NCBI GenBank assembly: GCA_030141605.1
Contig: JAQGDQ010002049.1
Coordinates: 1 to 16,598, forward strand
Direction: 5' to 3'
Length of the DNA: 16,598 nucleotides
Origin: Tubiluchus corallicola
Taxonomy: Eukaryota; Animalia; Priapulida
Part shown: in pieces, positions 1 to 16,598 of the stretch
Layout of the letters: each line of letters begins with the position of its first letter
Numbering within the stretch: the stretch's first letter is position 1
Program-made: the position numbers and the translations under genes
The notes under the pieces: generated by a model
What the model saw: the letters and a program-made list of their open reading frames with translations, nothing else
Database searches by the model: none
Told to the model about the DNA's origin: nothing

Positions 1-524
1 CAGAACTATAAAATCACTAGTCAGTCACAAACCAGCATGGACCCAACAGATGTTAATAATTGTCATATCTATCATTTTGTAACTGGTGCTAGTCTGCGTC
101 TTGTCATGTTTACCGTTTTGTAACTGTACCAGTCTGCGTGTTGACATGTCTACTGTTTTGCAACTGGTGCTAGTCTGCGTGTTGACATGTCTACCGTTTT
201 GTAACTGGTACTAGTCTTCGTGTCTTGTCATGTTTACTGTTTTGTGTAACTGGTACTAGTCTGCATCTTGTCATGTTTACCATTTTGTAACTGGTACTAG
301 TCTGCGTCTTGTCTTGTTTACCATTTTGTAACTGGTACTAGTCTGCGTGTTGACATGTCTACCGTTTTGTAACTGGTGCTAGTCTGCGTCTTGTCTTGTT
401 TACCGTTTTGTAACTGGTACTAGTCTGCATCTTGTCATGTTTACCTATTTTGTAACTGGTACTAGTCTGCGTGCTGACATGTCTACCGTTTTGTAACTGG
501 TACTAGTCTGCGTCTTCCTACTGT
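1..524 (-). repeat. Partial inverted copy of the 41-bp-minisatellite element (~11 units plus unique flanks)
   Basis: 1-65 is the reverse complement of 5761-5825. The units are the reverse complement of the 3757-5765 array. The end, cttcctactgt at 524, matches acagtaggaa at 3745. Confidence 0.93.
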
Positions 525-1068
525 ATTAAATCACAGAGATTATGAGAACATATAAGAATGATTTTACCAAAGATAAGGTCGACCCTTTCTTCATACTGTA
601 TTAGATCACAGATAATAGGCTCCTCTGTCTACATTTATGCATCATAACCTCTTACTTAACTCACAATAGTAGTGTCAATGGTAGAATTAAATCAATATCA
701 GTGATCAGTTCAGTGAAAGTCAAAGAAATAATCAAAATCAGTTCACGTTAATTCTCATAATTCCGTATAAGCATTTGAAAAGGTTCGTGAACATGGCATC
801 TCAAACTAATTACAAATTTATTAGTCAAATGCGAAAGTAACTCACATTTAGAACTGCAGCTCTAGTGTAGATATTTATGGCAAATATTTATCAATAATTT
901 ACAGCTAATGTTTTGCACTAACTGTGATTCACACCTCTCCATTAAATGAACGGACTTGGCGTTGCTTAAATTTAGATGCTCAGCACAGATTGCAACCACT
1001 TTCAAGATTACGCAATGTTTTCATAATACCAAAAAGTGCTAAATTAGTAACTTAAATACGCTACTTAC

Positions 1069-3507
1069 CATCTCTTCGAGGCACAACAGGTGGTGGCGGA
1101 CTCTGAAAATAAAACTGCTTGGTCGGAGATAAATGACGAGGCATTCCGTGCAGGAATTCTGGGGAGATGTCATCCGTATGGCTCTGAGGAGCACGCCGTC
1201 TGCTGGACGCTGGGGTGCCGGCTCGAACTTCGATGCTCGTCACGAATCTTCCCCCGTCAGATTGGATGTTGTACTTGAAGTCGGAAGCGTTTGCCGAGCT
1301 CCGAAATCCTTCTGGCGGCTCGACGGGCGTCGAGGTGCTGAACCCCAGCGAGGACGAGGTCGGACTAAAATTTGGCGGTGGCAACACCGACAGAAGGTCG
1401 TCCATTCCGCTGCTTGCGACGATCGCGTTTGCACCGACGCGCCGAAAAGCTGACGAATCTCCGACCGTTGAGACTATGTTAGGGGATGGCTTCACTCGCA
1501 CAGGTTTCACAGGTTTGTCGTAAACGTGATTACCGGAATGAATGCTCATGTCCGGATCGGTCGCGACCGGGAAGGCGATTTCCGTCGTTTTGCTCGGCTC
1601 AGCGTCGACGTTAGTATCTCTTTCTACCGGTACGAATCTGTTCTTTTCCGCTGCTTTTTCCGCAATTTCTTTGCTGAACCGCGAGCCTCTGTACTTGCCG
1701 GGGTAATTGTACACTGTGTTTCGGTCCGGAGACGAGTCGACGTCGCTGCCACTACTGCTGCTTTGGTTGGTGTTTGTGTTAACAGCGTCGGTTTTGTACG
1801 GAGAACTGGGCAGGCTGTTTCGTTGTTGTTGCTCCTTTAATCGTTTCTCTCTCGCCTGAGCAGCGGCCATGATTGCATCAGCTAGTACTGTGCTATTCGC
1901 CTCTTTCCCGCTGCACGTTCTGAGCACCTCTAATGCCCCTGCGCCATACTCCACCTGCTTCTCCGTAATCTCGCCGTGCACGTGATTTCGGGAATTTTCT
2001 TCCCTGTTTATTCTGTTTCGGTTTTGGACGACATCGTCGCCCTCCGGAGCCCGGGATGTGCTTATCGACCGCTGCCTGCCCTGAACGAAAGCGGGCGTTG
2101 ACGGATCGGGTTTTGAGCTGGATCCGAAAGACTGCGATCGAGACACGGGCACACCACGCATCTTATTAGACTGGTTATAGTTACTCTCGACATCGCTGTT
2201 GTCGTAATCCGGCTTGGGAATGAACACTTCATCATCCCCATTCATATCACTTCTTGGAGGCTTGCGAGGTGAAGCGGGTAGTGGATGAACGTGGTTAACA
2301 GGTGGTGTCGACAGTGGATGAACTTGGTTAACAGGTGGTGTCGATAGTGGATGAACTGGATTAACAGGTGGTGTCGACAGTGGATGAACTGGATTAACAG
2401 GTGGTGTCGACACTGGATGAACTGGATTAACAGGTGGTGTCGACAGCAGATGAGCGTGGTTAACGGGAGCAGTGTCAGCCGTACGCTGAGTGAAATTACG
2501 AGGCAAAGAGTTCGTATAATATCGATCACCCCCCGAAATGTCGAAAGCAATGATGTCGCTGGCAGCGTAGTGGCTGCTTTTAACGTTCTGCACGCCCAGG
2601 TCCCATTCCGCCTCCGAGTCGGAATCTTGTGAATTCTGGGATTTTTTTGAACAAGGAAAGCAGGCTCGGGGTTTTTCGTCCGTAATATAATGCTTATACG
2701 CCGTAGAATTTACATAACCGTCATTGGTGACGAATTTATTTAACTGTCGCTCGGGTGAATTCTTCGGAGTTTTGTCAAGGTCCACAGATGAACAAAGCTC
2801 GTCCATTTCTTTGCTTAGCTCCTCCATTTCGCAACTGATCATTTCTATATCGTCCACCGAACTTTCTTTCAAATGCAAGTCACTCAAGCGATCGGACAGC
2901 GGAGTAATGTCGGAAGAAATGCTGATTGGTCTTTTTCCCTGTTGACGCCGAGATTCTGAAGGCACGCCTGCTTGCTTTGGAAGCCCGGAATTGTGCAGTC
3001 CGGGCTGCTGCGGCGGACGTTTCATGGGTCGAGCGTATTGCACATTGGGATTCCTGGACGGCATTGCAGGAAGGCTCTCCGTCGATTTGTACAAATCACT
3101 AGGACCAACTCTTGAGGATTTTTGAGATTCAACCACCGGACTACTTGCTGTAAAATCGGGGATGGCCACGTTCGCTTCCTGCTGGTCCTTCAAGTTTGGA
3201 GAACTTGCGTACTGCTTGTTATTGTACATTTTCCGGCGTGCGTATCGACTGGGCACGCTCTGCTTCAACTTGTCGACAAATTTAGCAAACGGTGCATTAG
3301 ACTTGGCATTTCCAGTATTTCCACCAGGCGGAGCCGCTTCCTCGCCCTGCCGGTGAAATATGTCTTCCAGTTCCTGAGCAGTGATACGTCGTGCAGCCGG
3401 CCGCGAGCGAATGGAGGCAGTCTTTTTGTCATCGTCCTGCTGCATGGGAGGGATACTTCGAACTGATCCGCTCTGCAACGACTGACGTTGATTTTGTAGA
3501 CTAGCGG
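1069..3507 (-). CDS. SHANK: SHANK large proline/serine-rich exon (813 codons)
   Basis: Extends the 805-aa ORF. Acceptor cttttag at 3508-3510 is in frame with the upstream phase-1 exon. A consensus donor G|GTAAGT at 1068 lies before the ORF-track stop. Contains PPxxF motifs and a C-terminal PPPPVVPRR. Confidence 0.9.
2280..2470. repeat. Coding 33-bp tandem repeat (~5.5 units) encoding LSTPPVNPVHP
   Basis: Unit agtggatgaactggattaacaggtggtgtcgac occurs five times, plus a degenerate copy, inside the large exon. Confidence 0.95.
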
Positions 3508-3589
3508 CTAAAAGAAAAAAGAATTTATCACTAAGACGGATTAATTTTACGCTAACGACCAGAATAGTGTTAGTGAATTAAAAATCCTA

Positions 3590-6071
3590 CAATTAAAAAA
3601 CAGGGAAAAAGAACGAACGGGAACACGGAAAATCACCAGGAACGACTAGTACTAGTGAAGTAATTTTTGGGGGGTTTTTTGTTTATACTACTTATACGTT
3701 GAAAAGATACAAGTACGTAGAGAAAACACAGAAGCATACCAAAGACAGTAGGAAAAGACACAGACTAGTAGCAGTTACAAAATGGTAGACATGACAAGAC
3801 ACAGACTAGTACCAGTTACAAAATGGTAAACATGACAAGACACATGACCAGTAGCAGTTACAAAATGGTAGACATGACAAGACACAGACTAGTACCAGTT
3901 ACAAAATGGTAAACAAGACAAGACACAGACTAGCACCAGTTACAAAATGGTAGACATGACAAAACACAGGCTAGTACCAGTTACAAAATGGTAAACATGA
4001 CAAGACGCAGACTAGTACCAGTTACAAAATGGTAAACAAGACAAGACACAGACTAGTACCAGTTACAAAACGGTAAACATGACAAGACACAGACTAGTAC
4101 CAGTTACAAAATGGTAAACAAGACAAGACACAGACTAGCACCAGTTACAAAATGGTAGACATGGCAAAACGCAGGCTAGTACCAGTTACAAAATGGTAAA
4201 CATGACAAGACGCAGACTAGCACCAGTTACAAAACGGTAGACATGTCAACATGCAGACTAGTACCAGTTACAAAATGGTAGACATGTCAACACGCAGACT
4301 AGTACCAGTTACAAAATGGTAAACATGACAAGACGCAGACTAGTACCAGTTACAAAATGGTAAACAAGACAAGACGCAGACTAGCACCAGTTACAAAACG
4401 GTAGACATGTCAACACGCAGACTAGTACCAGTTACAAAATGGTAGACATGTCAACACGCAGACTAGTACCAGTTACAAAATGGTAAACAAGACAAGACGC
4501 AGACTAGCACCAGTTACAAAACGGTAGACATGTCAACACGCAGACTAGTACCAGTTACAAAATGGTAAACATGACAACACGCAGACTAGTACCAGTTACA
4601 AAATGGTAAACATGACAAGACGCAGACTAGTACCAGTTACAAAATGGTAAACATGACAAGACGCAGACTAGCACCAGTTACAAAACGGTAGACATGTCAA
4701 CACGCAGACTAGTACCAGTTACAAAACGGTAGACATGTCAACATGCAGACTAGTACCAGTTACAAAATGGTAAACAAGACAAGACGCAGACTAGCACCAG
4801 TTACAAAACGGTAGACATGTCAACACGCAGACTAGTACCAGTTACAAAATGGTAAACAAGACAAGACGCAGACTAGCACCAGTTACAAAACAGTAGACAT
4901 GTCAACACGCAGACTAGTACCAGTTACAAAATGGTAAACATGACAAGACGCAGACTAGTACCAGTTACAAAACGGTAAACATGACAAGACGCAGACTAGT
5001 ACCAGTTACAAAACGGTAAACATGACAACACGCAGACTAGTACCAGTTACAAAACGGTAGACATGTCAACACGCAGACTAGTACCAGTTACAAAATGGTA
5101 GACATGACAAGACGCAGACTAGTACCAGTTACAAAATGGTAAACATGACAAGACGCAGACTAGTACCAGTTACAAAATGGTAAACATGACAAGACGCAGA
5201 CTAGCACCAGTTACAAAACGGTAAACATGACAAGACGCAGACTAGTACCAGTTACAAAATGGTAAACATGACAAGATGCAGACTAGTACCAGTTACAAAA
5301 CGGTAAACATGACAAGACGCAGACTAGTACCAGTTACAAAACGGTAGACATGTCAACACGCAGACTAGTACCAGTTACAAAATGGTAAACATGACAAGAT
5401 GCAGACTAGTACCAGTTACAAAACGGTAAACAAGACAAGACGCAGACTAGCACCAGTTACAAAACGGTAGACATGTCAACACGCAGACTAGTACCAGTTA
5501 CAAAATGGTAAACATGACAAGACGCAGACTAGTACCAGTTACAAAATGGTAAACATGACAAGACGCAGACTAGTACCAGTTACAAAACGGTAAACATGAC
5601 AAGACGCAGACTAGTACCAGTTACAAAACGGTAGACATGTCAACACGCAGACTAGCACCAGTTACAAAACGGTAGACATGTCAACACGCAGACTAGTACC
5701 AGTTACAAAACGGTAAACAAGACAAGACGCAGACTAGTACCAGTTACAAAATGGTAAACATGACAATTATTAACATCTGTTGGGTCCATGCTGGTTTGTG
5801 ACTGACTAGTGATTTTATAGTTCTGGATTTCTCCCTTGTGCTTTTATCTGCTGTCCTTCTGTGTTTTCCCTATGTGCTTAAACCCTTTCGGTGTTTATAA
5901 GCTTTTTACGTACGAATGATACAAACAAAAAACTCCCAAAAAATCAGTTCAGTAGTTCTAGTAATTGCTGGTGATTTTTCCATTTTTTTGTCATTTTTTT
6001 CTTGAAGTGAAGAACTATAGTGGCAGCCAGAAACATAGAGCATGTTCTTCTTTTTCCTTGTTTTTTAATTG
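3590..6071. mobile_element. Foldback/MITE-like element with imperfect long terminal inverted repeats and an internal 41-bp minisatellite
   Basis: caattaaaaaacagggaaaaagaac (3590) is inverted at gttcttctttttccttgttttttaattg (ends 6071). 3627-3688 is an imperfect inverse of 5919-5981. No TSD or coding capacity seen. Confidence 0.65.
3757..5765 (+). repeat. 41-bp minisatellite, ~49 units (cagactagtaccagttacaaaatggtaaacatgacaagacg)
   Basis: Head-to-tail units with a few recurring variants and no unique spacers. Confidence 0.97.
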
Positions 6072-6084
6072 CCCTTTCTTTATA

Positions 6085-6730
6085 CGCTCTTCTCTCACTT
6101 ACCGCGGGTGTTTCGTTCCAGGCCCACCCGCAATAAGTGAATTTCCGCAAAGTAGGGACGCTATACTTATTTTAGTAGTTATACATTACTTTAAGTCTTT
6201 ATAAACTCTCCCCACACTCTTATACATAACCCTTTCCCATTCCCTTAATAACTTTTCCCATACTGTACATGTACTTTTTAAAAAACTTTACTTAAATGTT
6301 CATAAAAATGTTCACAATCAGCCAGTCGTGTGTTGTGTACAATCTCACGTCGGCAAGTAGCATCTCAAGCGGGCGCAAGTACTACATTTCGTTTTTGGTG
6401 TGTAGTCATCCGCTGAATAAATACACTATTTACTGGTAATTTTACTGGTAAATGGCAATTTTTTATGATTTATAATATTCTTTTAATGTTAGAATTAATA
6501 TTTTTAATATATTTTTATACATTTTGTGATTTTTTTATGCAAAATTCATGAAATCTATACATTACTGTACAATACGTACTACGCATGTGCAAAAATACTT
6601 TAGACGGAGTACCGCAAAAACCCGCGAAACAGAGATAATACCGCGATAAATATTTTACATTAATATTTTTGAAAACCCGCAAAACAGCGAGTCTGCGATG
6701 AACGAACCGCGAAGTAGTGAGGGAACACTG
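6085..6730. mobile_element. Tigger/pogo-like MITE with degenerate left TIR
   Basis: Right end gaaccgcgaagtagtgagggaacactg|ta. Left end ta|cgctcttctctcacttaccgcgggtgtttcgttcc is a decayed inverse. TA flanks and AT-rich interior. Confidence 0.6.
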
Positions 6731-6904
6731 TACAAAGATTTTATTATTCGTGAGTCAAACAAGAGCAGTAAGAATGTTGAGAAAAAAACACAAGGTAAAG
6801 TAGAAATACCGACAAGAACCATCATCTTCTGCTAAGCAATTTCCATTCAGTTAAAAATGCTATTTTTAGATTAAAAATTAGCAAAACATCATGGAAAAAT
6901 TTAC

Positions 6905-6994
6905 CCATCTCCGACAACTTGCTTGTTATTGAACTTCCGCGAGCTCGACCAACAGAAAGTGAAGTGGAAGGATCGCGCATAGGTGGTCTGGGAC
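6905..6994 (-). CDS. SHANK: SHANK exon, post-PDZ motif (GPRPPMRDPSTSLSVGRARGSSITSKLSEM)
   Basis: 90 nt, phase 1-1. Acceptor ttcacag, donor gtaaat. Resembles the PPxRxPxTxL segment that follows SHANK PDZ domains. Confidence 0.88.
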
Positions 6995-7798
6995 CTGTGA
7001 AAATACAATTAGATAAATATAGTAATTAGTAATTAGTAAATCTGTGTAAAAAAAGAATGAAAAATGTTAACAAATAGATTTGCTTTGAATTTTACGCATC
7101 TTGGATTCTGATTTGTTTACTCTCAACCATAACAGATGCATCCTATATGTTCTTATAATAAATCCGCAGAAAATTGTTTTTGTGTTTTGTTTCTCTCGGA
7201 AGGCTCGTAGAGAAAACCAGAAAACATGTCGTCAAATTAAACTAGTTTATTATGCGAGAATTCTACAACACAAAAGTGTGAAGGAACGCGAAATGTTTAC
7301 AGTAAATGTGACAATCTGGAAACGTGAAAGGGTGAAAGCGTATCTGAGAATACGAGAATACGAGGATACAAGAGAATAAACTCCAGCAGCCAGAAACTTG
7401 TATTACAATTGTAAAAACTCCTATTTTCAAATTCCTGGTAGCAGCCATTTTGCATTGGGTTATTTCTGCTGCCAAGCCCAGATCTTCGCCAGGAAAAGCC
7501 ATATCCTGGATTTAAACATAACTTCAACGTATCCTTGCAATGACCGTAGTAACCAACATTTGTGCGGTTGCTAAGTATTTTGTAAAAATGCGACAAAAAA
7601 CGGAGGCTGACTTTAACAGTTATTTTCTCAAGGTTGTTTTTCAGTGTGCAGCCTGCACCTCAACTTCAACGTGGATTATCTCAGCTTAGAAATAACATAG
7701 AGCGATGAACTTGGTATCAAAATGATCCTCATGAAATGGAGATTCAGGATGTTTGAATAACTAGAAAGGTTAATTGAAGACTTATGGACGATTTTGCT

Positions 7799-8021: not shown

Positions 8022-8169
8022 CGAACTTCCGCTTGAGGGGTAACGTCATGGTTTTTGTATTCTTGTCTAAAGTGACCGTGACGACCTTCAACGCTACCAG
8101 ATCCCCAGAAGCTTGGATCAGCTGTACGACTCTCTCGTGTGACGCCGTGCACACATCTTCGCTATTTAT
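8022..8169 (-). CDS. SHANK: SHANK exon, PDZ end (INSEDVCTASHERVVQLIQASGDLVALKVVTVTLDKNTKTMTLPLKRKF)
   Basis: 148 nt, phase 0-1. Acceptor cgtag, donor gtatgt. PDZ alphaB His (SHERVV) and LKVVTV. Confidence 0.93.
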
Positions 8170-8656
8170 CTACGAGCAAAACACGTTGTTCAAGTTATCG
8201 GAAAGTCTCTTGCAAAAGAAACTTTAAAGCACTCTTCATAAACAAAGCTTACAAATGCCCGTTGAAATTTCACAGCACCTACACACAACACACTGCCTCG
8301 GGTTCTCACATTAGCAGTAATGCCGCATTAAAGTTGTAAATTTAAACTCTCACAATGACCACTAGGTGAAGTGATTTGACGCTAAGTCGTTTGAAACAAG
8401 TTTAGATAACATTGTGTAAAGTTCTAAAAAAAGTAATCAGAGCATTCGTACCGCATTCTTTGCTAACTAAGGAAAAGTTTAAACTGCTTTATCTCGTCAA
8501 TAAGATTAAAAATATTGAAGAGCCTGTATCATTTTACCAGGAAGACACCGGAAAGGTGAGTCAGAGATATTTTATCAGTTGGCGCAAACATTGTAAATTT
8601 CGAATTACAGATGGCGCTGCTTAATAGACTCAATCTGGGATGAAAGTGTTTTGTCC

Positions 8657-8818
8657 CAATTAACCGACTGAATCAATTAACCGATTGAATCTATTAACCG
8701 ATTGAATCTATTAACCGATTGAATCAATTAATCGATTGAATCTATTAACCGATTGAATCTATTAACCGATTGAATCTATTAACCGATTGAATCTATTAAC
8801 CGATTGAATCCATTAACC
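8657..8818 (+). repeat. 17-bp minisatellite (ctattaaccgattgaat) x ~9.5
   Basis: Direct tandem units. One inverted degenerate unit at ~8619-8635 suggests the array sits in a TA-flanked MITE at 8608-8826. Confidence 0.92.
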
Positions 8819-9095
8819 AACAGATGTAGCATATAACTACTATAGAAGTATGAGTCATCACTCATTTATTTAAGATACAATGCAAAGGCTTGAAATGAAT
8901 TTTAGAAACAAGTCTGTCGAAATTCCTATGTGCCGGAGTAAAAGTTGCCAGCGACTTCTGAATTCCGCTTCACACGAACAACGCTCTCCCAAATCGTTTT
9001 CAACAAAACGCAGTCCAGTATCATAAAACTCGAACACGATTACGCGTCGCACTCGTCCCCAATTAAAACAAGCCATTTAAACCGGGAAAACTTAC

Positions 9096-9220
9096 TTCAA
9101 GGATGAAATCTCCAGGTCGGAGACCAGCTTTCCAAGCTATCCCTTCCTTGTCCACGTCATCTAAGTACTGGAGAGCAGGAAATTGTTCGTTTGGGGTAAA
9201 ACTCACGTTTCCTCCCATGC
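9096..9220 (-). CDS. SHANK: SHANK exon, PDZ middle (CMGGNVSFTPNEQFPALQYLDDVDKEGIAWKAGLRPGDFILE)
   Basis: 125 nt, phase 1-0. Acceptor ttttag, donor gtaagt. SHANK-type FTP...FPALQYL and AGLR.GDF motifs. Confidence 0.95.
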
Positions 9221-9704
9221 CTAAAATAAATACACACTTTACATGCAGAAGGAAAACATGTACGAATATTTCATGAATGCAAATGTAATTTTTTTATGGA
9301 TGCATTTTAGTCAGTTTCAAAAGTTATATAATGGCCCACGACTGTTAATAGATAAAAAACTGCATACATTATAAACAATTTTATACACGTATAAAATTGA
9401 TATTATACGCGTTCACGTAAATGAATTACAATCTAGTATAAAATATAATAGCACTGTTTTGTATAAGCACAGTATGTGTTGTATAGACACAATATAAAGT
9501 AGTTATGTTAATAATTAAACACTAGAAGCCGCCGTTACTGTTGTAAGGCCTTTTGGAGTACAGACGTTGATTACAAAATTTCAAAGTGTGGAAGAGTGCA
9601 AGCCGTGTGTAAATGACGTGAAAGAAGACAACGTACTTGGATAAAAATAAATGAATACACGGAAAAAACAATACATGAGAATCTTTTAAGGAGTGTCATT
9701 AAAA

Positions 9705-9922
9705 ACTACTAATAATAACAACGACGACGACGACGACGACAACAACAACAACATTAGCAGCAGCAACAACAACAACGACAACAACATTAGCAGCAGCAAC
9801 TACAACAACGATGACAACAACAGTAGCAGCAACAACAACAACGATGACAACAACAGTAGCAGCAACAGCAGCAACAACAACGACGACAACAATGACAAAG
9901 ACGACAACAGCAACAACAACAA
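9705..9922. repeat. Compound trinucleotide microsatellite (AAC/GAC/AGC)n
   Basis: Visible directly. Intronic, and the source of the spurious poly-N/D ORF. Confidence 0.95.
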
Positions 9923-10047
9923 ACTAAAAAACTGACGGCTGGGCACTGTTCGCAATTACAGCACCTAAATTTGGTGCATCGTTACCTTGAACCAAATATA
10001 AAAAATGCATAAAAAAGTTAAGGTCATTAATTATATGAAGTATTTAC

Positions 10048-10188
10048 ATTTGGCACCGCGAAGCACAAATCCAAAACCCTTGTTCCCCCGCTGCAACACG
10101 ACGGTTCTCACGTGGTTCTTTTCCCGCCCTTTCACTAGCGCAGACAGTTCCTCCTTGTTAAGAACGACCGACTCGTCTTCGTCGGAAC
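10048..10188 (-). CDS. SHANK: SHANK exon, PDZ start (GSDEDESVVLNKEELSALVKGREKNHVRTVVLQRGNKGFGFVLRGAK)
   Basis: 141 nt, phase 1-1. Acceptor ttgcag, donor gtaaat. GFGF carboxylate-binding loop. Confidence 0.93.
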
Positions 10189-10310
10189 CTGCAAAGTACA
10201 AAATGATCAGCCTGGCAACTTTTTACACACAAAACAAGCTGATGTTTGCACAAGCTAATGCTATGTTTTCAGAGCAATATTGATTATTAGTTAAGCTAAT
10301 TAATTAAAGT

Positions 10311-10735
10311 TGTTGGCATCGTTCTGTCTCGGAAGACAATGGAGTGTGCGCCAAGAGAGTCAGTTGTTGATCATATTGATGGAGCTGCAGCGTCGACTGT
10401 GGCTGAGCAATGCGATCCTTGAACGTTTCCAGGGTGCACGCCTGGGCAAGGTGTATGGAGATCCTGAGTTGCCCAGACAACAGGAACCCCCTCTCTTCCT
10501 CCTCGGTGTAGTCCAAAGGAAAGCAGAGCGATACGTTTGGCACCAGGTTGGCTGCAGGAGCTGCCGGAGTCAGTGAGCATGCTGCACTGGTCCGCCTTCG
10601 GGGCTCCACTCCTGATTTGGAAGGTTTACTCCACTACACATGGCCGTTGGGTCGCTTGACCTCCTCCGCCCTCTAGCCGTTGGCTGCTTGTGCAGCTCCT
10701 CCGCCTAGTGTCGAGATACAGTGTGCGCATCCCGC
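10311..10735 (-). mobile_element. Non-autonomous RTE-related SINE-like retroelement, GC-rich, 425 bp, with 12-bp TSD
   Basis: TSD attaattaaagt at 10299-10310 and 10736-10747. The minus-strand 3' end ccattgtcttccgagacagaacgatgccaaca resembles, from memory, AviRTE-like RTE 3' ends. GC-rich island in an AT-rich intron. Confidence 0.75.
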
Positions 10736-11153: not shown

Positions 11154-11643
11154 TTAACCGAGCCACTGGGGGGGGGCAAGCCAGCCCAACTCGGTGACGG
11201 TCCCAAGCCCGGATAAATAGGGAGGGTTAGGGTCAAGAAGGGCATCCGCCTGTAAAAACTGTGCCAAAACCTTCTATGAATGAGTCGGTGAGACTTAAAG
11301 GGAAAGTCCACAAAGAAGTGGTCAGACCTGCTCTAATCTATGCGCTGGAAGCAGCTTCTCTAAAGAAGACCGAAGAGAAGAAAATGGGTGTGGTGGAGAT
11401 GAGGATGTTGAGATGGATGGTGGAAATAACAAGAAGAGATAAAATTAGAAATAATAATATCAGCGGAACAGTAAAAGTTGTGGAAGCCTCGCAAGATTGC
11501 GATGGTATGGACACCTGAAAAGAAGAGTCGGTGAAGATCATGTGGGAAGGGAGGACATAAATGAAGAGATGGTCAACAACAGGAATGCGTGGAGAAGACT
11601 CATTCACAACGGCGACCCCGCATAGGGAAAAGCTGGGAAGAAG
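11154..11643 (+). mobile_element. Internally deleted RTE-clade non-LTR retroelement with 5' twister ribozyme, copy 1 (more decayed)
   Basis: 19-bp TSD with 2 mismatches (aagacactatggttgatcg 11135-11153 / aagactctacggttgatcg 11644-11662). (GAA)n tail. RTE C-terminal relics VVRPALIY..E, EMRMLRW...TRRDKIRN, RLRWYGH and WRR..GDP*. Near-identical to 14244-14740. Confidence 0.92.
11155..11228 (+). ncRNA. Twister ribozyme (type P1), degenerate copy
   Basis: UAA-CCGA-GC-[CACUG..CGGUG]-ACGG UCCCAAGC CCGG-AUAAA-UAGG-GAGGG. Core loops are intact, but P2 (11160) and P4 (11197) each have a mismatch. Confidence 0.8.
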
Positions 11644-12040
11644 AAGACTCTACGGTTGATCGCTGCATCAGAAATTTTTAGGAAGGATCCGCTGATTTCG
11701 CATAAATATAATCTGGTCAAAAACTGTAAAAAAATTTCCAGTGGTTTAATGCATTTGGGATAAATCGTGTAAAATAGAAATGGAAAGGCGAAAAACAAAA
11801 CGCTTGGCACCTGCTCACATGAGTGACATTCTCAATGGGCAACATTAAAACTCACAACCGTTTTGCAAATATCTATGTGGTTATCTTTACACATGCACTT
11901 AGCCTAACCTCCAATAATGCAAATGTAATCAATCCACCTAAGTCTTGTGTTTAAATAAGCTTGAAGGTGACTAAAGTTACTTGCAACTTCAGCAACATAC
12001 AACCCCACCCCCTCCCCTACAAGATGCTGATCTCGCCTAC

Positions 12041-12145
12041 CCTTTTTTGTCCTCATCTTCACTTCCTGGACGCAGTCTTTAGGGAACCAGCCCTCCTTGT
12101 CGTCGAGTTTTCCTTCCCAGAATCCTCCTTCGCCGACGCTCAGAA
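12041..12145 (-). CDS. SHANK: SHANK exon, SH3 C-half (VLSVGEGGFWEGKLDDKEGWFPKDCVQEVKMRTKK)
   Basis: 105 nt, phase 1-1. Acceptor ttacag, donor gtaggc (donor slightly less certain). SH3 WEG...GWFP motif. Confidence 0.92.
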
Positions 12146-12173
12146 CTGTAAAAGGGAACATTTAAACAATTAT

Positions 12174-12387
12174 CAAGGATGAGAATGACAAATTGCAAAA
12201 AACTCACTCTGAAACAGGCCGGGGGTTTTGGGGCCGGCTAGGCCCCTAATGGGGTTGAGAGGCAAAGTCCCCATGGGGGTTCAAGGGGTCGAAGCAACAA
12301 ATAGCAATTTTGTGACCATAGAGAGCCTCTAAGTGGACTTAAAATATCAATTACTTTGTTTCATGAATAATGTAAAATACCCAACTA
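12174..12387 (+). mobile_element. Truncated copy (left 214 bp) of the CAGGG-TIR element at 15037-15545
   Basis: caaggatgagaatgacaaattgcaaaaaac...aaaatacccaacta aligns to 15037-15234. Confidence 0.88.
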
Positions 12388-12400
12388 CGTAAGAACATAC

Positions 12401-12547
12401 CTTGAACAAACTCCCCCAAGGATAGTTCAATTTCTCCTTCCGAAGTGGGTTTGTGAGGTTTGACACAGACGAACGTACGACCAGGCATGGCCGAATACAG
12501 TCTCTTCCTGTAACTGCCCGACGGGGACGCTGAAAGCTTGCTAATTT
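12401..12547 (-). CDS. SHANK: SHANK exon, SH3 N-half (EISKLSASPSGSYRKRLYSAMPGRTFVCVKPHKPTSEGEIELSLGEFVQ)
   Basis: 147 nt, phase 1-1. Acceptor ctgcag, donor gtatgt. The ORF track shows a different, spurious frame here. Confidence 0.93.
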
Positions 12548-12797: not shown

Positions 12798-13029
<232 letters not shown>

Positions 13030-13618: not shown

Positions 13619-13916
<298 letters not shown>

Positions 13917-14041: not shown

Positions 14042-14186
14042 CAATATCGTTGACAGAATGTCGCTCAATCACTTCGGCGAGGTCCAGATTGCCAGCAATG
14101 ACCGCCACCTGGTAGGGAGTTTGATTCGCAAAGTTCTTGGCGTCTTTATCGGCACCACGAAACAACAGCATTCGCGCACAGCTATC
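14042..14186 (-). CDS. SHANK: SHANK exon, last ankyrin repeat (DSCARMLLFRGADKDAKNFANQTPYQVAVIAGNLDLAEVIERHSVNDI)
   Basis: 145 nt, phase 0-1. Acceptor ttttag, donor gtgagt. Close match to SHANK ESCARVLLFRGA...VAIIAGNFELAEVI. Confidence 0.95.
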
Positions 14187-14240
14187 CTAAAATGAAGTAG
14201 CGTGAAATTGATATCATTTCAGGTAACTAATACTGACAGC

Positions 14241-14322
14241 AATAACCTAGCCACTGGGGGGGGGGGGAGGCAAACCAGCCCAACTCAGTGCCGGTCCCAA
14301 GCCCGGATAAATAGGGAGGGTT
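14241..14322 (+). ncRNA. Twister ribozyme (type P1), apparently intact; predicted cleavage U14243^A14244
   Basis: UAA 14243-45; P2 CCUA 14246-49 / UAGG 14312-15; pseudoknot GC 14250-51 / GC 14301-02; P3 CACUG 14252-56 / CAGUG 14286-90; P4 CCGG / CCGG around loop UCCCAAGC; L1' GAGGG 14316-20 pairs with loop 4. The core GCCGGUCCCAAGCCCGGAUAAA is the same as the rice twister core as I recall it. Confidence 0.9.
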
Positions 14323-14740
14323 AGGGTCAGGAAGGGCATCCGCCTGTAAAAACTGCGCCAAAACCTTCTATGAATGAGTCGGTGAGACTTAAAGGTAAAG
14401 TCCATAAGGAAGTGGTCAGACCCGCTCTAATCTATGGGCTGGAAGCAGCTTCTCTAAAGAAGACAGAAGAGAAGAAAATGGGTGTGGTGGAGATGAGGAT
14501 GTTGAGATGGATGGTGGGAATAACAAGAAGAGATAAAATTCGAAATAATAATATCAGAGGAACAGTAAAAGTAGTGGAAGCCTCGCAAGATTGCGATGGT
14601 ATGGGCACCTGAAAAGAAGAGTCGGTGGAGATCATGTGGGAAGGGAAGACATAAATGAAGAGATGGTCAACAACAGGAATGCGTGGAGAAGGCTCATTCA
14701 CAACGGTGACCCCGCATAGGGAAAAGCTGGGAAGAAGAAG
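14244..14740 (+). mobile_element. Internally deleted RTE-clade non-LTR retroelement with 5' twister ribozyme, copy 2 (better preserved)
   Basis: Perfect 17-bp duplication aatactgacagcaataa (14229-14245 / 14741-14757). gaagaagaag tail. RTE 5'UTR-type motif gtcaggaagggcatccg..taaaa joined directly to RTE ORF C-terminal relics. Confidence 0.94.
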
Positions 14741-14819
14741 AATACTGACAGCAATAATCAGAATGGGATATTTTGTTAATGACGATGACGTTGATGGTGG
14801 TGATAACAACGATCATTAC

Positions 14820-14936
14820 CTGATTGTTTATGCAGCAAACGTGGAGAGGCGTGTTGCCGCTGCCGTTCCTTGCATTCATGTCGGCACCGTAGAATAGTAG
14901 CAAATCCAAGTGCTGTGCATAACCGTGCTTGCATAC
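14820..14936 (-). CDS. SHANK: SHANK exon, ankyrin repeat (VCKHGYAQHLDLLLFYGADMNARNGSGNTPLHVCCINNQ)
   Basis: 117 nt, phase 0-0. Acceptor cag at 14937-14939, donor gtaatg at 14819. Ankyrin GNTPLH motif. Confidence 0.95.
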
Positions 14937-15036
14937 CTGCGCGAAACAGTGCTTTAATAACAGGCAACCATATTATGCTTGCACAAGCAAATAACAAATC
15001 GAATTCGCAACATGCACATATATTACAGGCAATTTA

Positions 15037-15545
15037 CAGGGATGAGAATGACAAATTGCAAAAAACTCTGAAACAGGCCGGGGGTTCAGGGGCCGCGTAG
15101 GCCCCCAATGGGGTTGAGGGGCAAAGCCCGCTTGAAGCCAGCAACAAATTGCAATTTTGTGATCATAGAGAGCCTCTAAGTGGACTTAAAATATCAGTTA
15201 CCTTGTTTCATGCATAATTTAAAATACCCAACTATCAAGGATACATGATACCTAATTGTCTCAAAAACGTCTAAGTACTGGCCGCTCCTATGCAAAAGTA
15301 TATAAAAACTGTCTGCAATTGACTCAAATAACTCCGCACAATTGATTCTATATTTTTATACGTAGAGATATACACGTGGTTATGCCTATGTACGTGATGT
15401 AAACAAAGTGACGGCCTGCCAACTAGCGGCCAGCTTGTGAAATAATGTACTGGGTCCGTAAAAATTTTCTCAACGAATTTACGCGATTTACAAAAATGGC
15501 ACTACTGGTCTTCCAAAAACTCGGAATTCCACATTCTCATCCCTG
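15037..15545. mobile_element. Non-autonomous TIR DNA element (hAT-like CAGGG ends), 509 bp
   Basis: 14-bp perfect TIR cagggatgagaatg / cattctcatccctg. Flanked by a 20-bp direct duplication with 1 mismatch. A second partial copy starts at 12174. Confidence 0.85.
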
Positions 15546-15885: not shown

Positions 15886-16030
15886 AATAGCTAGGATTAA
15901 GTAAAATTAATTTTGGCACCGTTTTCAATTTAAATTTGAATTCTGTTGACGTGACGTAATTGGCAATTAACTGATGGGAAACGCAATACTGTAATACGAA
16001 ATACGCAATACGAACATTATAATTTAAATA

Positions 16031-16454
16031 CCGTATTTTCCCATGTATAAGAGACCCTTGTGTATAAGAGACCCCTTCAATTTTTAGGCAAAAATTCTGG
16101 AAAAAAGTTTTTTGGTAATGAATAACTTTATTCATCATAGAAATCATTAAATTCCTCATCACTCTCATCAAAAATATCAACTGGAGTCAGACCTTCAGCA
16201 ATTCCAGCCAGTTCATCATCAGAGGAGTCACTCTGCTCAAAAATGGCATTGTCCTCTGTGCCGTCCATGGCATTGGAGATGCCACACTTCTTGAAAGATT
16301 TAATAATGACCTCTGGCTTTACACCATTCCATGCCTTGAGGACCCAGCTGCAGACTTCTCCAAGGGTTGGCTTACTCCCATGTATAAGAGACCCCCTATT
16401 TTTAAAGTGAAAATTCTGAGCAAAAAAGGGTCTCTTATACATGGGAAAATACGG
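16031..16454 (-). mobile_element. Internally deleted pogo-family (Tc1/mariner superfamily) DNA transposon, 424 bp
   Basis: 27-bp perfect TIR ccgtattttcccatgtataagagaccc / gggtctcttatacatgggaaaatacgg. TA TSD at 16029-30 and 16455-56. Subterminal tgtataagagaccc repeats. Relic transposase C-terminus WVLKAW...IIKSFKKCGISNAMDGTED with an acidic tail. Confidence 0.93.
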
Positions 16455-16598
16455 TAACCAAAAATTTACAATTCTAAAATACTGTGAATATGCGAAACAA
16501 ACAAAATAAAAATAGAAAATGAAAGTTTATCAAAAAAAAATTGTAGAAACCTGACCCAGTTAACACGCTAAAACGATGCACAAAATACAGCTTACTAG

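Follow-up and report, generated by a model that had tools for sequence, protein, structure and literature searches.

The closest described counterparts of the locus considered here are exons that lie between inverted intronic repeats. Exon 2 of Drosophila laccase2, 490 nt long with introns of >9 kb, forms a circular RNA (circRNA) between inverted DNAREP1_DM repeats, members of an abundant transposon family with 69-75% identity (75% over 106 nt and 69% over 272 nt), and both the circle and the pairing have been shown (PMC4617980). An AluY/AluSx1 pair in TBXT, 1,448 bp apart, encloses an exon whose loss keeps the reading frame, and both the skipping and a phenotype were measured (PMC10901737). 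Designed inverted pairs in mouse Tbxt also lead to exon skipping, pairs of 220-297 bp being active; in insRCS2, which arose spontaneously, a 220-bp piece of intron 6 was inserted in reverse into intron 5 at the CRISPR target site, and tails were ~10% shorter (PMC10901737). The present work concerns a stretch of 16,598 nt from Tubiluchus corallicola (contig JAQGDQ010002049.1; the window), which carries a SHANK gene on its minus strand. The largest exon of this gene (1069-3507) is flanked by two inverted copies of a minisatellite-bearing segment, copy A at 1-524 and copy B at 3745-5825, and the next downstream exon lies beyond the window start, left of position 1. With slightly better than even confidence, the inverted pair is read here as a recent local copy whose transcripts may form an RNA duplex around the exon, with low-level skipping or back-splicing as a by-product and not as a selected switch.

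Copy A consists of a head (1-66), which the window start truncates, followed by 11 minisatellite units of 41 bp (60-516) and a 10-nt tail ending at 524; copy B presents the same parts in reverse, with a 10-nt tail ending at 3745, 49 units (3755-5766) and a head (5760-5825). The window start falls within the head of A, and positions 1 and 5825 are limits of the comparison, with no implication that the element ends there. Tandem Repeats Finder called the two arrays as 11.0 and 49.0 mutually reverse-complementary copies, and the non-repeat heads are identical at 66/66 nt. The best local alignment joins 1-516 to 5314-5825, the part of B (units 39-49 and head) that is matched unit by unit with A, and 498 of its 511 columns are identical (97%, 13 mismatches), the longest perfect stretch being 131 nt. 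This likeness is far beyond chance. The order of the variant units is likewise preserved, as units 1-10 of A differ from units 39-48 of B at 17 places, compared with 27-59.5 in the other 38 registers, and none of 20,000 permutations reached 17 differences (minimum 20). The sequence-only reading of the window had described two reverse-complement copies of ~11 and ~49 units lying ~540 and ~240 nt from the splice sites, and this description is confirmed, the array-to-splice-site distances being 544 nt on the side of A and 237 nt on the side of B.

The window was compared with DNA contigs from four sequencing runs, X1 to X4. No RNA run was listed among the four, which carries no information on expression. 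X2, for which the kind of run is not stated, was treated as DNA because one of its contigs extends 11 nt beyond the acceptor into the intron, and X4, with no cover of the head and no flanking contig, was omitted from depth ratios. Sample S1 is possibly the window's own source, in which case only X2 is independent. Relative to flanking single-copy contigs (X1, X2 and X3), depth amounted to 0.4-7x for the head, 35-176x for one 41-bp unit, of which the window alone holds 60, and 260-7,000x for a neighbouring element resembling the miniature inverted-repeat type of transposable element (MITE), so that the head reaches about 1/1000 of the depth of the latter; contig depth is an order-of-magnitude hint that gives no copy number and undercounts tandem units. 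Unit order and depth together point to a low-copy local duplicate rather than an abundant transposon, and the earlier description of the pair as driven by transposable elements is not borne out. The copying event appears young, since the divergence of A and B (13 in 511) is close to the divergence that nearby contigs of other haplotypes show from the window, with 11 differences in 499 (X1 record 8) and 15 in 324 (X2 record 9). The two arrays are oppositely oriented, nearly identical versions of a single minisatellite-bearing segment and probably go back to recent copying within the locus.

On the simplest reading, a longer precursor at the site of A, consisting of the head, a 41-bp array and a unit of a second, 75-bp family, would have been copied in reverse into the upstream intron, at the centre of a palindromic element that was already present there, e.g. 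by templated repair of a break, after which A would have lost the ~38 units adjoining its tail. A third, low-copy master locus may alternatively have been the source. The insRCS2 allele is reported to have arisen in the same manner as is proposed here, as an inverted copy of a neighbouring intron at a cut site (PMC10901737).

As in laccase2, reverse-complementary sequence occurs in both flanking introns next to canonical splice sites, the acceptor of the exon being TTTTAG with a long pyrimidine tract and its donor GTAAGT. The predicted net energy of the A-B duplex is -675 kcal/mol when anchored at the heads and -509 when anchored at the tails, and 502 A-B pairs, in the head-anchored register, appear in the fold of lowest energy for 1-6100, with 4.8 kb looped out; energy models of kilobase RNAs leave out kinetics, proteins and pseudoknots. 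Pairing in many registers had been anticipated in the sequence-only reading, and several stable registers are indeed predicted, yet in the most stable one the partner of A is the distal end of B, at a distance of ~1.8 kb from the acceptor instead of 240 nt. The inverted arms of the palindromic element around B are predicted to compete with A as an intra-intron pairing. Their duplex has a net energy of -71, versus +23 +/- 8 for 100 control intron pairs, and the nascent upstream intron, folded before A exists, forms 126 arm pairs in a stem that encloses B and crosses the A-B pairing. The A-B duplex is ~10x stronger than the arm stem and prevails at equilibrium in the fold. On the transcript strand, adenine accounts for 40% of copy A and 17% of copy B, and any A-to-I editing of the duplex would accordingly be expected to concentrate in copy A. 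Motifs of the MBL/QKI type (1-5 per intron flank, counted with no control) were rejected as a further argument. Competition between pairing within an intron and pairing across introns is described as controlling circularisation (PMC5731806, a review citing Zhang et al.; PMC7038940), and among captured duplexes 78.9% were reported to lie inside one intron and 7.9% to span one exon (PMC13019944).

In the proposed mechanism, pairing between the arms of B would come first, leaving B in a loop and promoting normal splicing. Should transcription reach A while the upstream intron is still in place, A could pair with B in many registers, over up to ~500 bp, and loop out 3.2-4.8 kb, which would lead either to back-splicing of the exon (1069 to 3507) or to its skipping (6905 to the next exon). 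Once that intron has been spliced out ahead of the transcription of A, neither a circle nor a skipped product is possible. Most of the output would still be linear mRNA of full length. On these folding models the A-B duplex quite probably forms at times, and the chance that it yields a detectable circle or skipped mRNA is put at even. Many exons flanked by complementary repeats fail to circularise in the laccase2 study (PMC4617980), and a tendency of skippable exons to be short is reported (PMC13019027), both of which count against a large effect.

The exon itself (1069-3507, minus strand) is, as the sequence-only reading held, 2,439 nt long, of phase 1-1 and stop-free, with a single stop-free frame of 812 codons, and is situated between the PDZ domain and the expected SAM domain. 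From its own phases, its loss is predicted to keep the frame, leaving the downstream linker and SAM domain, as judged by a relative, P0002. The latter continues ~390 residues beyond the exon to a C-terminal SAM domain (SAM_1, E 1e-4), whereas the SAM domain of the present gene lies outside the window. P0002 is the sole broad match to the exon among 21 matches (E 1.8e-56, 42% identity); the other 20 are centred on an 11-aa repeat region (query 317-485). The exon contains PPxxF twice (at residues 709 and 730 out of 812), both motifs being kept in P0002; they may bind Homer, PPxxF being the reported Homer consensus (PMC13502648). Seven of the eight differences between the exon and the DNA contigs are silent, one of the eight, in the split first codon, having been read by hand, which argues that the usual constraint of coding sequence acts on the exon.

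A back-spliced circle of this exon had been described as an endless open reading frame (ORF). When the exon is repeated four times head to tail, its frame indeed contains 0 stops, against 88 and 168 in the other two, and the junction codon GCC, split after its G, encodes Ala. However, a circle without stops follows automatically from any coding exon that is symmetric, so that the endless ORF carries little information, and seven of the ten modelled exons are frame-symmetric, six of them in phase 1-1; frame symmetry was rejected on this ground as evidence of design. Rolling-circle ORFs, which likewise have a length of 3n, no stop and the frame of the host, were found in 14% of human circRNAs of one dataset, their products often being degraded (PMC9242994). 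The SHANK exon has these properties, the circle and its translation being hypothetical, and that such an endless circle is translated is hardly credible.

The large exon also resembles exon 21 of mouse Shank3, which is likewise the largest exon, carries the Homer site between PDZ and SAM and can be skipped, as in Shank3b (PMC4113141, PMC11328446). The mouse exon measures 2,257 bp and shifts the frame, so that its loss truncates SAM, whereas loss of the present exon is predicted to be in frame; in the text of those two reports no repeat-driven cause of the skipping is named. The equivalence of the two exons is positional, as the exon search gave no full-length match of the vertebrate type.

Compared with these systems, the architecture is of a known and ordinary kind; what is unusual is how strong the pair is, that it probably arose locally and recently, that a competitor is built in and that loss of the exon is predicted to keep the frame. 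It shares with laccase2 a single exon near ~500 nt of inverted intronic sequence, reported there to be not conserved in related species (PMC4617980). Unlike laccase2, the SHANK locus combines a low-copy minisatellite segment of 97% identity with an exon of 2.4 kb and an upstream intron of 3.4 kb, and its pairing would have several registers and a competitor inside the intron, the RNA side being predicted only. The inverted pair around an exon is shared with TBXT, as is, by prediction, an exon loss that keeps the frame, while the loop of 3.2-4.8 kb predicted here compares with 1,448 bp and measured skipping there (PMC10901737). In the library searched, which lacks most subscription papers, no paper combined the terms for minisatellites and back-splicing, and none of the titles listed concerned a circle from the proline-rich exon of SHANK, although supplements of papers on SHANK isoforms or circRNAs may name one.

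Several points weigh against the reading of a recent local copy with a minor effect on splicing. The direction of copying requires two steps, the copy and a subsequent contraction of A, and the head-side end of A, with any microhomology or target duplication, falls outside the window. The depth of the head disagrees among runs (0.4-0.7x in X1, 2.6-5x in X3, 0 in X4), and depth is rough and undercounts tandem repeats, which leaves room for a small transposon family. The RNA part is prediction only. A 500-bp duplex of 97% identity is much stronger than the laccase2 pair, and by this analogy the effect could exceed a low level.

Among the alternatives, independent insertion of A and B as members of a small, low-copy transposon family with tandem repeats at its centre, either HINE/DINE-like or of the MITE kind with a satellite inside, and local hopping would have the same consequences for RNA; this appears unlikely. 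Satellites have been described within MITEs and Helentrons (PMC9659126), and Cg_HINE, DINE-1 and the miDNA4-MITE, like the present copies, have a short satellite-like array of variable unit number between fixed flanks (PMC7492417, PMC9659126). A and B do show such a layout of head, array and tail, equal in both and varying in unit number alone, with the central tandem array between fixed flanks that characterises Helentron-associated elements (HINE/DINE-1), and the head depth in X2 and X3 is compatible with more than two copies. In addition, B has inverted arms, the end of which recurs in the genome. Unlike in HINE-type elements, end structures were not found, copies are apparently few and inverted arms occur at B only. 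Between 3700-3780 and 5760-5860 there is no 11-12-bp sub-terminal inverted repeat (<=1 mismatch); the head folds at -1.0 kcal/mol and forms no 3' hairpin, no microsatellite adjoins the flank, and the inner segment has no terminal inverted repeat, with 13/40 positions matching. Membership in HINE was rejected because the sub-terminal inverted repeats, 3' palindrome and 5' microsatellite were not found in the stretches compared, although the ends of the element may be truncated. The low depth of the head, about a thousandth of that of the neighbouring MITE-like element, argues in the same direction. A 22-nt pattern from the unit had 0 matches in metagenome and viral contigs, and Rfam gave 0 matches.

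The arms around B, not mentioned in the sequence-only reading, belong to what appears to be an older palindromic element. The left arm (3575-3744) starts ~70 nt upstream of the acceptor, and the right arm (5826-6071) is identical to it at 122/160 positions over 5835-6012, with an alignment score of 111, while none of 500 shuffles scored above 50, and at 27/29 in 6044-6071; the inverted stretches are 3587-3757 and 5835-6071. The end of the left arm (3575-3617) recurs elsewhere in the genome, as seen from loose ends at 3574-3580 and 3609-3617 in X1, X2 and X3. The inverted arms that would enclose the array of a foldback element or MITE are thus present around B in a degenerate form, and the comparison within the window found no inverted arm on the tail side of A. 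No target-site duplication was evident by eye at 3575-3590 and 6071-6082, the arm termini being uncertain, and a continuation of the right arm past the MITE-like element was rejected, the match there being merely 11 nt. The MITE-like element itself (6083-6732), presumably Tigger/pogo-like, is very abundant, with a depth thousands of times that of single-copy sequence and loose ends at 6090 and 6732. It seems to be lacking from X2 record 9, where depth is 21.9 both at 5760-6082 and at 6767-6782, and may be polymorphic. Another repeat of very high depth begins at 7180-7220, with loose ends before 7180 in 4/4 runs.

Beyond the common tail, A keeps ~100 nt of the 75-bp family and B nothing. This second tandem family, also missing from the sequence-only reading, continues the tail of A as ~1.3 units at 513-612 (25-nt direct repeat 513-537/588-612). 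It is abundant in all four runs, with a depth in X1 of 24,600 vs 202, and contigs of X2 and X3 contain its head-to-tail joint, from 573 to 525 with 26 letters between. The window's 513-612 is a diverged edge of the family, and X1 has a 9-nt insertion after 603.

Local copying with splicing effects as a by-product must also be set against a regulated switch, by which the pair would drive an abundant 2.4-kb circSHANK and/or an in-frame isoform without both PPxxF motifs, keeping PDZ and SAM and having a biological role. The very strong duplex predicted in several registers speaks for such a switch. According to the laccase2 study, ~500 nt of inverted repeat promotes circularisation during transcription, which is more efficient for longer exons (PMC4617980). 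Many mouse Shank3 transcripts lack exon 21 (2,257 bp) through splicing, so that this class of exon is skippable (PMC11328446, PMC4113141), and a rodent circ-Shank3 has been reported, the text of that source not naming its exons (PMC10476535). The copy is, however, young, given a divergence of A and B near that of haplotypes, and the arms of B compete inside the intron, the location of most captured duplexes (78.9%; PMC13019944). Many exons between complementary repeats do not circularise (PMC4617980), and the present splice sites are of consensus type and frame symmetry is usual in this gene. A regulated switch is considered unlikely, and an adaptive role of the pair very unlikely.

A bolder version, judged quite unlikely, would make of the young and possibly segregating copy an allele-specific switch. 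Carriers would then produce substantial amounts of an in-frame PDZ-SAM SHANK uncoupled from Homer, together with a stable 2.4-kb circle, at a level set by the race between the arms and A and by the number of units. If true, this would be a natural counterpart of the engineered inverted-copy Tbxt mouse, located in the gene of a central synaptic scaffold, and repeat length would tune it. More generally, should the pair alter splicing, one local copying accident would have changed a conserved synaptic scaffold, in frame unlike the skipping of mouse exon 21, and possible alleles without the insert, together with variable unit numbers, would offer a natural test of duplex length and of intra-intron competition. 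A pair without effect on splicing would be a useful negative, showing that an unusually strong inverted pair is tolerated around an essential exon.

The least credible alternative is an assembly artefact, with one copy duplicated from the other by a false join: the start of the window falls within the head of A, none of the listed contigs spans either array, and X1 record 1 fits from 5821 with 21 non-fitting letters to its left (which could be an allele without the head of B, or a variant head), but A has private substitutions and indels in units 2, 7 and 9 and a different flank in the 75-bp unit, contigs of X2 and X3 join the head to the right flank of B, and X1 contigs are collinear over 571-2375 and 2417-3744. 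Moreover, contigs of two studies (X2 record 9 and X3 record 17) begin at 5760, exactly where the agreement of A and B starts (the last difference is at 5759), which indicates that both versions of the junction exist, as expected if A and B are both real.

The identity of the gene as SHANK, proposed in the sequence-only reading, is supported by Pfam domains, PDB matches and P0002. Ten modelled exons join into 1,228 codons with no stop, and ankyrin repeats, SH3 and PDZ occur in the order typical of SHANK/ProSAP. On the minus strand, two ankyrin-repeat exons lie at 14042-14936 (Pfam Ank, E 2.3e-7 and 1.2e-3), and two exons at 12041-12547 cover the SH3 domain (Pfam SH3_2, E 9e-5), for which the top four PDB matches are SHANK1/2/3. 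Three PDZ exons (10188-10048, 9220-9096 and 8169-8022, within 8022-10188) match Pfam PDZ_6 (E 2.8e-6), and 10/10 PDB matches are SHANK1/3 (best E 6.3e-13). The exon preceding the large one (6905-6994, 90 nt, phase 1-1) supplies the donor that would serve on the 5' side of a skip junction. The homologue search found none among 7,974 longer candidates; it yielded one of 14 for the PDZ exon and one of 2,430 for residues 1-345, the latter being P0002, while P0003 and P0004 were checked and found unrelated. A related-locus scan with alignment A1 gave 597 pattern matches and 0 confirmed loci, and an atlas comparison with a best score of 0.82 was uninformative. In P0002 the ORF runs unbroken from the region of the large exon to SAM; provided that the P0002 contig is genomic, that species has no intron corresponding to the one after 1069.

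The large exon further includes a 33-bp coding tandem repeat (2280-2453, minus strand; 11 aa x 5.3), absent from P0002, which adds five STPPVNPVHPL-like units to SHANK; X1 contigs break there, and its length may vary. An intronic stretch rich in G+C at 10307-10633 (minus strand) has an open frame of 109 codons, possibly a gene fragment or alternative exon, for which there was no Pfam match and a PDB match at chance level only. The window also holds other repeats. The segment at 16029-16456 carries perfect terminal inverted repeats of 31 nt, retains a weak trace of DDE_1 (E 0.052) and is likely a deleted DNA transposon. Direct copies at 11155-11647 and 14243-14741, 94.6% identical over 499 nt, resemble 3' fragments of a non-LTR retrotransposon, which we take to be of the RTE type, a label without Pfam support. 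A second direct repeat pair (12167-12387 and 15030-15234) is 83.7% identical, and a 17-bp minisatellite and AAC and CT microsatellites occupy other introns at 8659-8818, 9717-9922, 12802-13025 and 13620-13911.

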